A stretch of 64,000 nucleotides of DNA from the NCBI GenBank assembly GCA_965205675.1, contig OZ242186.1, positions 1,728,001 to 1,792,000 of the forward strand, in the 5' to 3' direction. This DNA comes from Nitrosopumilus sp. Lineage in GTDB: Archaea > Thermoproteota > Nitrososphaeria > Nitrososphaerales > Nitrosopumilaceae. The notes beneath the pieces were generated by a model, which did not search any database, was not told the origin of the DNA, and saw nothing but the letters and a program-made list of their open reading frames with translations. Shown in pieces: positions 9,763 through 48,035 of the stretch (its first letter is position 1; each line of letters begins with the position of its first letter). The translations under genes and the position numbers were made by a program.

Positions 9763-10648
9763 AAAGAATAATCTCCACATGATGATTAAAGAGAAATTTA
9801 CGTTTTCATTTTTGTGTTAGGATATGTATTAAGATTTACCTTAGTGTTAGTCGTATTATCTTCTGTGACTTTCACAGATGTTTTTACCAATTCTTTTGAT
9901 GTTCATTTTGACAAGCAATTTTACGATCTAGGTAATTCGTTTACTATTTCAGGTAAAATTCTTGATGTTGTAATGCCTTTAATCGCTATGAATATGTATG
10001 ATCCAGATAGAAAAATTTTATCCGTAAACAATTTGGAAATTTCTGCCGAAAATACCTTTGATAAGATTATTTTCTTTAATTCTTCTTATCAAAAAACTGA
10101 TTAATATTCAATCAGACTAGATTATGGCTTTCTTTCTGGAACTTGTTATTTTATTATATAAGATGCATTTGAGTCTGAAATTCTAATTGATGAATATCTT
10201 TGAATCCTAAAATTATTTCATTGGGTATGGAAAAAACAACACGTTGAACAAAGATACTGTAAAAATTCTTTGCACTGTGTAATTTGTTAATTCTCTTACC
10301 GTATTTATTGAAATTTATGAATCCTTTTGGAATGCCTACGGAATTTTATTTTGGTCATGTTGATTCTAATTTAGAATTTAAAACAAAAATTGTTGTAAAA
10401 TCTGATATGAGTTTTAAAGTTGATGGGACATGTCCTATAAAAGCACATTATACTAATAGCAAAATAATCTTTTTTTGATTATTAGAAAATACCACCAATA
10501 ACAATTGAAGATTCTTCAGAAGGAAAAAATTCAAGAACCAACTAATAATGAACAAATAATCCATTTGAGGATAAAATTACTTCAAGCAATAATGATAAAG
10601 CCACGTCTGATAAACAATCTAATTTACAATCAAAATCTTCAGATGATG

Positions 10649-30324: not shown

Positions 30325-30832
30325 GATTTCTGAATGGTTTCAGAGAGTAGGAAGTTCAATTCCTAGAGGATTTTCAAGATATTTTATTTTGGAATTATTG
30401 AAGAAAACTCCGCACACAGGAAAAGAGATCATAGACTATGCAGTAGAGCAAAGTAATGGGATTTGGAGACCATCACCGGGATTAATTTATCCGTTACTAG
30501 GTAGACTATTGGATGAGGGACTAATTGAGGAGACTAAAGATGGAAAGTATCAATTAACAAAGAAAGGAAAAAACACCGCAGAGGATGTAGATAAAGTAAA
30601 TGATATTGTCAAAAAACAACTAGAAGTTTTGTTCAGATTAGGTAATGTGGGAAGATTTGTTGCAACAGATCTATTAGAGAAGATTTCTTCGATGGGATCT
30701 ATTCTTAGTTCTAATTTTACCAATATGACTGAAGAAGAAACCAGCAAGTATAAGCAATTCCTAGAATCAGAATTGAAAAAAATTGAAGAGAAAGAAGTAA
30801 AGAAAAAAGGTAAATCGATTAAGATCGATTAA
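30323..30832 (+). CDS. PadR-family transcriptional regulator
   Basis: ILELL...GKEII...WRPSPGLIYPLLGRLLDEGLI...YQLTKKG. Confidence 0.9.
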   Translation: MISEWFQRVGSSIPRGFSRYFILELLKKTPHTGKEIIDYAVEQSNGIWRPSPGLIYPLLGRLLDEGLIEETKDGKYQLTKKGKNTAEDVDKVNDIVKKQLEVLFRLGNVGRFVATDLLEKISSMGSILSSNFTNMTEEETSKYKQFLESELKKIEEKEVKKKGKSIKID

Positions 30833-45483: not shown

Positions 45484-46477
45484 CTAACTATAATTTTGTA
45501 CAAATTCTCTCCTCTCCTTTAACATCCAATAAATCACCCTCAGGATCTTTGATGCACCAGCTACTGCAGCTTTGGATGATCCTCTTTTCTTTTTAATGCG
45601 ATTGTAAAATTTTGTAATGTCACTATCCTTGGCATGAATTGCATGAGTGTGTATGCATTCTGTTAGAACCCATCTCAATGTCATGCTTCCCCTTTTTGTT
45701 ATTCTGCCATGGTGTATTGTATCTGCAGAGTTTCTAACTGATGGTACAACTCCTGCATATGCACACAGTTTGTGAGAATCATTGAATCTCTCAATATCTG
45801 CAATCTCTGATGCAATGACAAGCGAAGAATAATGCCCAATTCCCGGAATCGAGTTTATCAAAATTGCATCAGGATTAACTTTTACAGCAGCATACACTTT
45901 GGAATTAATCTCTGCAATCTGTAAATTAAGGTGGCTGATTTGTTGCAAGAATCCGTCTATTCTGTAATCTCCTAGTGCCTTGAGTCTTCTGTTGTATGTT
46001 TCAGTGAATGTAACTCCTGGAATCCTGATTCCTTCCTGTAACAATATTCCATGAACTGAATTCTTGACAGATGTTCTCCATTGGATTAGTTTTTTCCTAT
46101 ATCTTACAAGCTGTCTTTGTTGTACAATCTTTTTGTCTGGAACATAACATGTGGCAATGTATCCTCCTCGTAAAAGATCTGCCAATATCTTGGCATCAAT
46201 CTTGTCTGTTTTCTTTTTTGATGTAGCAATTGCCTTTGTCAAATATGGGTTTGAGAGTGTGACGTTTTTGTATCCCAAAGTATCTGTGAGAAATCGATAC
46301 GTGTCATACCAGACTGATGAGGATTCCATTACAATATTTGCAGAAATTGGTATTTTTGCAAAATGCTTCCTGATAGATTCATGAGTGTTATCCACTTTGT
46401 CATTTTGTAATACTTTGCCTGCATCATCCATTTATTACTTGAAGAAACTTCTTGTGCAGGTCAATGCCCACAAACAT
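45484..46477 (-). pseudogene. IS110 transposase with frameshift after codon ~15
   Basis: MFVGIDLHKKFLQVI is out of frame with MDDAGK...VMES...KTDKIDA...SIPGIG...YAGVVPSVRNS. Confidence 0.85.
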
Positions 46478-46633
46478 GCCTTTCTTTGGTTTCTTCCTAA
46501 TCTGTTTGTTTGTAATCTTTTTTGGAGCCGAGTATTTACGAACCTTGGAACTAGATTCATTTTTTATGCTATCTGATTTCCTTGCTTTCTTATTCACATA
46601 TAGTTATTAGAATTATTAGTATATCATTTATTT

Positions 46634-47844
46634 GAGACTTGGGCATAATTAATTCTGATTTTTGAGTTATCTCTCAAATTATTCAAATGGAAAAAGCTAA
46701 AGATCAGCACATCGTGATATCATTGAAATGATAAAAGATGTACAAATCCCTAGGCAACATAAGGTATCAATCATTTCTTATTGGCGTGTTACATTTGGTT
46801 CATCATGCAGTCTGATATTTGTAGCGGCGATAGGTATCAATCATTTCTTATTGGCGTGTTACATTTGGTAGGGACATTATCTTTGTATGAAGATGTACTC
46901 AGAGTCGGTAGACCATACGTGTACTCCACCATTCAGATGATGCAATTGTGCATCGCAGGTCTTGGATGAGAATATCCAGCAACAATACACTATACTATTT
47001 TCTTTTGATTAAATCAACCAATCACAAATTACTCAAGGTTTGTAAATTACAGTAAATCCCAAACCGTAGAACAATTGACAGGCGATTTGAATTTCTACCA
47101 ATTAGTGACATGATTAGTACAATGGGCAACAAATTCATCTCAGATGGATTGGTGGAAAATATTTTAGTACTAGTTGATAGTTCCATGCTAAAAGCTGCTG
47201 AGTCCAGTATAGCAAAAATCAGACATTACACAAAATCGTTTGCCAATTGCAGGAATTGATACTGGTGCCAAAATAGGGTTTCTCCAAATACAAGGGTTGG
47301 ATATTTGGATACAAACTACACATAAGTTGTTCGGCTGGTAAATTGATTGTTCCTTTATCTGCTGATGTCTCAACTGCAAATGTTCATGACAATAAGATGT
47401 ATTGTGAAATAATCAAATCACTTGCAGGGCTGATAAGTAATGTCTTGTGTGATCCAGCATATGATGATGGTTCACTGTACCAGTTTAGCAGCAAGAAAAA
47501 TCTGAGATTGATTACTTCAGTTAAGATATACCCATCAACTCCTCCAGAGAGAATCAAACTTGCAGATTTTTATCATTCTGTGATTGGTCAAGAGTTGTAT
47601 TTGCAAAGAAAAATTTCAATTGAGCCCCTATTTCAAATATTCAAAGATGCATTTGATATCAGAACAGTCCCTGTGAAAGGATCAAATAACGTAGAATCAT
47701 TTGTGCTGATCTGCGTGCTTGTTTATCAGTTGGCAGTGTATTACAATTGTATTACTGGAGTAGAGAATCCAAGAATTGTCAAAAGAATGCTTTGTTGTTG
47801 AAATAATTTAAAACTATTTTTGTAAATCACTATGCCCAAATCTC
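46634..47844 (+). mobile_element. IS982/IS5-like DDE element (1211 bp) with TIR GAGA(C/T)TTGGGCATA, 8-bp TSD and pseudogenised transposase
   Basis: TSD ATTTATTT/ATTTATCT; GRPYVYS, GWIFGYKLH, CDPAYD, RKISIEPLF motifs across broken frames. Confidence 0.88.
46762..46869. repeat. 38-bp perfect direct repeat flanking a 32-bp unique insert
   Basis: AGGTATCAATCATTTCTTATTGGCGTGTTACATTTGGT at 46762-46799 and 46832-46869. Confidence 0.95.
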
Positions 47845-47852
47845 ATTTATCT

Positions 47853-48035
47853 CTCTAGAACCTGTTAAAACAAAAAATAATGAACTACTAATAATTTCAA
47901 TTAATGCATAACCTGGTTATGCATATGTTTTTGTTGCACAAGAACTGGGATTTTTTGAAGATAATGGAGTTAATGTAGAATTAATTTTAAGACAAGATTA
48001 TTATGAATCTCAAGAACTTTATTTGAATAGTAATA
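47853..48035 (+). pseudogene. NMT1/THI5-like ABC substrate-binding protein fragment, interrupted by the IS
   Basis: IN.*PGYAYVFVAQELGFFEDNGVNVEL; frame joins 46590-46633 once the IS and one TSD are removed. Confidence 0.7.

Follow-up and report, generated by a model that had tools for sequence, protein, structure and literature searches.

The window analysed here is a stretch of 64,000 nucleotides (G000:C1:1728001-1792000) from a Nitrosopumilus genome, G000, that is assembled as one contig of 2,011,361 bp (33.7% G+C, 99.88% complete). At window positions 46622-47855, on the plus strand, lies a decayed insertion sequence (IS) of the IS4/IS5 type (DDE_Tnp_1), recognized by a profile match and by comparison with an intact paralog. 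Only a C-terminal open reading frame (ORF) of 152 amino acids is still open in this element (47343-47801; DDE_Tnp_1, E value of 8.2e-11). An IS110-family transposase gene on the minus strand (45484-46597; Transposase_20, E value of 3.5e-21; DEDD_Tnp_IS110, E value of 2.5e-19) directly adjoins its left end. Near the start of the decayed IS, at approximately codons 7 to 19 of the former 328-amino-acid transposase, a repeat-insert-repeat unit occupies positions 46762-46869. Two target copies in direct orientation (46762-46799 and 46832-46869) enclose an insert of 32 nucleotides (nt) at 46800-46831, all read on the plus strand.

A repeat search recovered the two 38-nt copies that the sequence-only reading of this DNA had described. 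They are 100% identical, their spacing is 70 nt, and 38 nt is the full extent of the exact repeat. Within the window there are two instances of the 38-mer, whereas none of 100 shuffled sequences contained two or more matches to it; the 32-mer occurs once, and any match was absent from all 100 shuffles. The genome carries many copies of this IS, with 71 to 81% identity, and every alignment of these copies to the window skips the insert together with one copy of the repeat. In a multiple alignment with 10 paralogous IS segments of the genome, the 38-mer region was single and the insert absent in all 10, and IS copies from related genomes showed the same broken alignment pattern against the unit. 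Since the paralogous copies hold the 38-mer once, the unit is an insertion with target duplication. The sequence-only reading was therefore right that something had recently been inserted and had duplicated its target over an unusual length, and the insert, whose occurrence in other IS copies it had named as an objection, is missing from them.

The same reading held that removal of the insert plus one repeat restores the transposase frame. This is true of the junction, which the frame crosses once the 70 nt are removed, but the gene is still broken elsewhere: to match the intact 328-amino-acid paralog, this IS copy would have to change frame at least twice more, whether or not the unit is removed. 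Either the transposase gene was already dead when it was hit, or it decayed afterwards. Among contigs from two public sequencing runs (Logan), none bridges the unit. A 280-nt contig found in two runs begins within the second target copy and continues without differences; this starting point can be explained by the 31-mer graph, which is expected to break at the duplication.

The insert had been taken for foreign DNA, but its 32-mer is 100% identical to five sites of a tandem accessory gene in the same genome, at positions 1337331, 1339178, 1341088, 1342956, and 1344866, located 430 to 437 kb from the unit. The match to the source extends over 34 nt, adding an AG (46832-46833) that also opens the repeat, and no base is shared at the left junction. 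Because the source match runs for 34 nt, the event can be read as 32 + 38, 33 + 37, or 34 + 36 nt of insert and duplication; if the AG arrived with the insert, the latter measures 34 nt and the first target copy is reduced to 36 nt (46764-46799).

All five source sites fall inside a 330-amino-acid ORF without a Pfam family, which belongs to a 1.9-kb unit repeated five times. The whole region (1336.7 to 1345.5 kb in the genome; L023 6605-15231) is a five-fold head-to-tail amplification of two genes, the 330-amino-acid ORF and a coiled-coil-like ORF of 155 to 176 amino acids. Four of the five tandem copies of the longer ORF are 100% identical. This gene is rare in the genus, being present in 3 of 60 other sampled congeners, and its neighbours include an rve integrase fragment, a ParM/actin-like ATPase, and an SNase-like nuclease. 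We read the source of the insert as accessory DNA that is probably mobile.

The host cas1 and cas2 genes that the sequence-only reading had proposed to look for are present in the genome. There is a single Cas1 in the genome (E value of 1.3e-93), Cas4, Cas1, and Cas2 were all recognized by Pfam, and the cas4-cas1-cas2 operon adjoins cas3, cas5, cas7, an ORF of 562 amino acids without a Pfam match, and cas6. This gene content suggests a type I-B-like system; the cas locus is complete, and its cas4-cas1-cas2 set looks functional. An IS630-type transposase gene (DDE_3, E value of 8.8e-18) is located between cas2 and cas3 (L022 11265-12263; genome positions 701265-702263). In the array next to the cas locus, a 30-nt repeat occurs 12 times and is separated by 11 spacers of 34 to 37 nt. 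Its orientation was fixed by comparison with the arrays and leaders of four other genomes (G303, G009, G017, and G180), a comparison that also supplied a set of 364 spacers. Far from the cas locus, at genome positions 9808-9905, the native 30-nt repeat recurs in two degenerate forms (two and four substitutions) that lie 68 nt apart; they are either what is left of a small array or an ectopic unit of some age at a site that closely resembled the repeat.

The resident ruler thus measures 30 bp, versus the 36 to 38 bp duplicated in the IS, and the idea that the duplication would equal the host repeat in length did not hold. The insert, at 32 to 34 nt, is within the spacer range but in its lower tail. 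Spacers of 34 nt or less account for 7 of 364 in the I-B family, in which the mode is 36 nt, and for 4 of 357 in a second system of the genus, which has a 36-nt repeat.

We scanned the whole of G000 for exact repeats located 40 to 120 nt apart and then repeated the scan with mismatches tolerated; G017, a relative, was scanned as well. Isolated pairs with an insert of at least 24 nt and a period of 40 to 140 nt numbered 23, of which 17 had a period between 64 and 76 nt. Candidates at 30670 (period of 62) and 1900635 (period of 57) were excluded, as G017 has both structures in conserved form, and four rows were left out as ambiguous (1247936, 422826, 1796704, and the degenerate mini-array at 9808). 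About 12 units similar to that of the window, each with its own insert, are found elsewhere in the genome, as the sequence-only reading had thought worth looking for. Four units (98275, 199961, 439378, and 1478538) have periods of 64 to 67 nt and approximately 30 nt duplicated. Nine (541166, 732792, 1474824, 1479353, 1480044, 1505435, 1599699, 1704607, and 1774762) have duplications of 36 to 39 nt and periods of 70 to 75 nt; the last of these is the unit of the window. In this larger class, seven of the nine duplications are perfect, one has a single mismatch, and one has three, and the inserts are all different. A full-length second match in the genome was found for 1 of 14 candidate inserts, that of the window unit, while the others gave only chance matches of 15 to 17 nt. 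The idea that these inserts are hairpin elements was rejected, since folding reached a p value below 0.05 in only 1 of 14 inserts, those of G017 included.

The target sites of the two classes differ in their relationship to known repeats. When aligned in register with the native repeat, the four 30-nt sites reach 70 summed matches against a null mean of 51.0, and 0 of 20,000 resamples attained that value. The location of these units at repeat-like sites indicates that off-target Cas1-Cas2 integration does occur in this genome, and we take the four to be natural off-target integrations by the resident enzyme. In the 36- to 39-nt class, likeness of the nine targets to a repeat, which had been suggested as a check, was not significant for either repeat known in the genus: the sum was 119 against a null of 121.7 for the 30-nt repeat (p = 0.76) and 124 against a null of 125.3 for the 36-nt repeat (p = 0.64). 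Pooling the end positions of 28 half-sites yielded no robust motif, only a weak preference for C at -1/-2 and for A at +7. A "GT...AAT" start seen by eye was set aside, having been chosen after the data were viewed. No leader-like sequence was found near the units, and GC skew was uninformative for placing them relative to the replication origin.

Pre-insertion alleles could be recognized for five units, namely that of the window, 1474824, 1478538, 1479353, and 1505435. The unit at 1474824 lies in a sequence with an IS66 twin at 994 kb, which holds the 38-mer once and, over two stretches of 262 and 361 bases, differs at only two positions, both in the longer stretch. For 1478538 and 1479353, G343 and other relatives have the orthologous segment uninterrupted, and seven relatives have the undisturbed allele of 1505435. 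Seven of the nine in the 36- to 39-nt class are located between 1.47 and 1.78 Mb, and the 5.3 kb from 1474824 to 1480119 (L024 6824-12156) contain four units, three of the 36- to 38-nt class and one of the 30-nt class, among IS66, ParB, Fic, and IS630 genes and decayed DNA. Another unit, of 37 + 35 nt, lies inside a tRNA-Phe(GAA) gene (541166-541274). According to aragorn, the acceptor stem of this tRNA forms five of seven pairs as it stands and seven of seven with 72 nt removed, and four other tRNA-Phe genes are called in the genome.

A second adaptation module exists in the genus. It consists of a fused Cas4-Cas1 protein of 555 amino acids (E values of 5.6e-90 and 8.7e-20), Cas2, and long arrays of a 36-nt repeat. 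This repeat is nearly invariant and was present in 11 of 120 sampled congeners; G009, G014, and G346 are among the carriers of the module. Its 357 spacers have a modal length of 36 to 37 nt, giving a modal period of 72 to 73 nt. Both the repeat length and this period fit the nine units of the 36- to 39-nt class, whose periods are 70 to 75 nt. G000 itself contains no copy of the 36-nt repeat within nine substitutions and no half-repeat above the chance level, and a search of G000 for the proteins of the module gave no match beyond the I-B Cas1.

G017, which now has only an I-B-type Cas1, was fetched whole as a control and proved to contain four or five units of the 36- to 38-nt class (344307, 1680226, 1904174, 782372, and perhaps 193510). 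However, G017 also has a solitary 36-nt repeat (G017:C1:1535367-1535402) and a 55-amino-acid N-terminal fragment of the Cas4-Cas1 fusion (1419015-1419176), which indicate that it once had the 36-nt module. As an "I-B only" control it failed, and it separates neither of the two possible integrases from the other. In another genome, G356, a perfect 38-nt duplication with a 34-nt insert (72 nt in all) lies inside a cas1 gene of a third type (G356:C1; L057 1908-2017), which it splits into ORFs of 151 and 134/167 amino acids. Neither the 30-nt nor the 36-nt type of repeat was found in G356. A second, truncated Cas1 of G303 is only 25% identical to the fused type.

Searches for protospacers were mostly negative. 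The native spacers and the ectopic inserts had no protospacer in their own genome; the native array, compared with 300 genomes of the family, matched only other arrays, apart from weak matches (no conclusion relies on the unpublished genome G243 listed there); and three arrays found no protospacer in the INPHARED phage collection. Two sets of spacers from relatives (364 and 374) searched against G000 and G017 gave nothing usable beyond one match of 36/40, which falls in an Mrp-like housekeeping gene. Viral contigs were also scanned four times for exact matches to core segments of the window insert and of three others, and no match was found.

Taken as a whole, the 70-nt unit is likely the scar of an ectopic, off-array integration of a CRISPR-type spacer, and we infer that the 36- to 38-nt class to which it belongs is also the product of a CRISPR integrase. 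An integrase of the Cas1-Cas2 family, loaded with a 32- to 34-nt fragment from the cell's own accessory island, would have attacked both strands of a dead IS copy at positions 36 to 38 bp apart, and gap repair would then have duplicated the stretch between the two strand attacks. The proposal of an off-target CRISPR acquisition in an IS is thus probably right in kind, with three corrections: the spacer is self-derived, the ruler differs from the resident one, and the event is one of about 13 in this genome. Because its "repeats" are not expected to be Cas6 substrates, the unit is probably inert, which would explain the tolerance of a self-matching spacer. Several observations count against the CRISPR reading: the duplication of 36 to 38 nt is unequal to the resident repeat of 30 nt; in the closest biochemical model, the Pyrococcus furiosus enzyme, off-target spacing follows the length of the repeat (PMC6698737); the 36-nt module, with its Cas proteins and its repeat, is absent from a one-contig assembly; the targets of the 36- to 39-nt class resemble neither repeat and yield no robust end motif; a 34-nt spacer is short for both systems of the genus; and, beyond the single 36/40 match, native, relative, and ectopic spacers all lacked a protospacer in the searches made.

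Which CRISPR integrase would have been responsible is a separate question. We tentatively favor the 36-nt module, which may quite possibly have made the unit and has since been lost or acted from an unassembled or transient element. Since G000 lacks the module and the unit at 1474824 is younger than the IS66 duplication, whose copies differ at only 2 of 623 nt, the module would have to have disappeared very recently. According to passages of one report, thaumarchaeal mobile elements carry CRISPR-Cas loci (PMC6563490). Because such loci ride mobile elements, gain, loss, or action in trans of a module is plausible. The other candidate is the resident type I-B Cas4/Cas1/Cas2 set, an attribution that is nested within the CRISPR-integrase reading rather than added to it and that we consider rather unlikely. 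It would require that, where internal anchor motifs are lacking, the second strand attack falls 6 to 8 bp past the normal 30 bp. The resident set includes the sole Cas1 of the assembly; perfect and recent units of both size classes occur together in the 5.3 kb from 1474824 to 1480119, where the 38-nt unit 1474824 postdates a 99.4 to 100% identical IS66 twin; and, judged by eye, the opening bases of the window unit in its 36-nt reading (GTATCAATC) agree with each end of the native repeat at seven of nine positions. Yet the lengths form a tight cluster of 36 to 39 nt with no spread, the targets of this class have no significant likeness to the 30-nt repeat, and the other genome in which such units were found, G017, retains traces of the 36-nt module. 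Moreover, off-target integrations by the homologous Pyrococcus furiosus enzyme have a spacing of 30 to 31 bp in the experiments described in parts of PMC6698737.

Explanations that dispense with a CRISPR integrase fare less well. An undescribed process could add approximately 72 nt by pasting in a short DNA snippet with a compensating duplication of the target; the lack of a target motif tying the 36- to 39-nt class to a repeat, the copying of the window insert from the genome's own DNA, and the 38 + 34 unit inside cas1 of G356, a genome with neither repeat type, would agree with such a process. We regard it as improbable for the unit, since the inserts are unique and form no hairpins (1 of 14 folding with p < 0.05), eight of the nine have no template in the genome, their lengths and periods are ones that also occur among the spacers and arrays of a genuine CRISPR system found in the genus, and the 30-nt sister class is clearly Cas-made. 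We also know of no enzyme besides a CRISPR integrase that leaves such a footprint. That the whole class was made by no CRISPR integrase, but by a widespread process in which each event pastes in roughly 35 nt and duplicates some 37 bp, for a constant total near 72 nt, seems slightly less probable still; were a CRISPR-independent origin true, the likeness to a unit of a 36-nt-repeat CRISPR would be either a coincidence or a hint at the origin of arrays. A template switch of the FoSTeS/MMBIR type, in which the strand left the IS, copied 32 to 34 nt at a distance of 437 kb, and returned 36 to 38 nt upstream, is very doubtful. It would account for an insert templated by the same chromosome, for a template available in five identical copies, and for the AG shared at the right junction. 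However, microhomology is expected at both junctions and here amounts to 0 nt on the left and 2 nt on the right, the template is 430 to 437 kb away instead of local, the inserts of equally sized sister units lack a genomic template, and sharp size classes of 30 and 36 to 39 nt are unexpected from slippage.

An assembly artefact or chimera can be almost dismissed. Although contigs of the public runs do not span the unit, the repeat-insert-repeat structure is exact, 12 further loci and two further genomes show the same geometry, and the 280-nt contig of two runs continues without differences from the second copy. Two further candidates were rejected. A casposon or casposase would leave a duplication of 13 to 15 bp, not 36 to 38 bp, and G000 has no Cas1 homolog outside its cas operon. 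As for an insertion sequence or MITE, the other copies of the insert lie within a coding tandem repeat, and it has neither a hairpin nor inverted ends.

Ectopic spacer integration is a kind of event already described in the laboratory, and G000 is a rich natural example of it. Off-array integration is known mainly from over-expression in Escherichia coli and from test-tube work, and natural cases are few. Here, a single small archaeal genome holds about 13 scars that can be dated and that fall into two well-defined lengths, five of them with undisturbed alleles. If the CRISPR-integrase reading is true, these scars document when adaptation modules were active, and even that a genome once had modules it has since lost. 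They would also show a cost of adaptation in the form of broken genes and self-derived spacers, and new arrays could naturally start from them. That scars of 36 to 38 bp occur beside a resident system of 30 bp poses a concrete question.

The closest laboratory counterpart is the off-target Cas1-Cas2 spacer integration that Nivala, Shipman and Church reportedly described in 2018 (Nat Microbiol) as "neo-CRISPR" units. This work is cited in passages of PMC7054753 and PMC11788318. Like those units, the scars of G000 consist of a spacer-sized insert between two copies of the target outside an array, they recur within one genome, and the 30-nt sister units are located at repeat-like sites. In contrast to them, the G000 case is natural rather than a product of over-expression, the spacer in the window is self-derived, and its duplication (36 to 38 nt) is not of the resident repeat length (30 nt). 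Template switching of the FoSTeS/MMBIR type also produces templated insertions with duplication, the template usually being nearby. The window unit resembles such events in having an insert copied from elsewhere in the genome and a duplicated flank; it departs from them in its junction without microhomology, its distant template, and the sister units that have no genomic template.

Other Cas1-family enzymes offer comparisons on the scale of the ruler. The family 1 casposase of "Ca. Nitrosopumilus koreensis" gives a 13-bp target duplication and needs a specific target, according to parts of PMC8464041. It is likewise a Cas1-family integrase of a similar archaeon, and the same passages describe it inserting short oligonucleotides and using a ruler (PMC8464041). 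Unlike the situation reported there, G000 has no casposase gene, and the duplication is 36 to 38 bp rather than 13 bp. For Cas1-Cas2 of P. furiosus, sections of PMC6698737 describe full-site integration at non-CRISPR sites in vitro, with an off-target spacing of 30 to 31 bp for a 30-bp repeat and sites that share the repeat bases G1, T2, A6, and others. The repeat of G000 is of the same family, with 30 nt and an end in ATTGAAA-, both cases involve paired opposite-strand attacks on non-array DNA, and the four 30-nt units resemble the P. furiosus sites; the window unit differs from them, with 36 to 38 bp and no significant likeness to the repeat. Compared with the Cas4-Cas1/36-nt module of G009, G014, and G346, the targets show no likeness to its repeat and the 34-nt spacer is shorter than 353 of its 357 spacers, yet the units share with this module the 36-nt length and a period of 70 to 75 nt that brackets its 72 to 73 nt.
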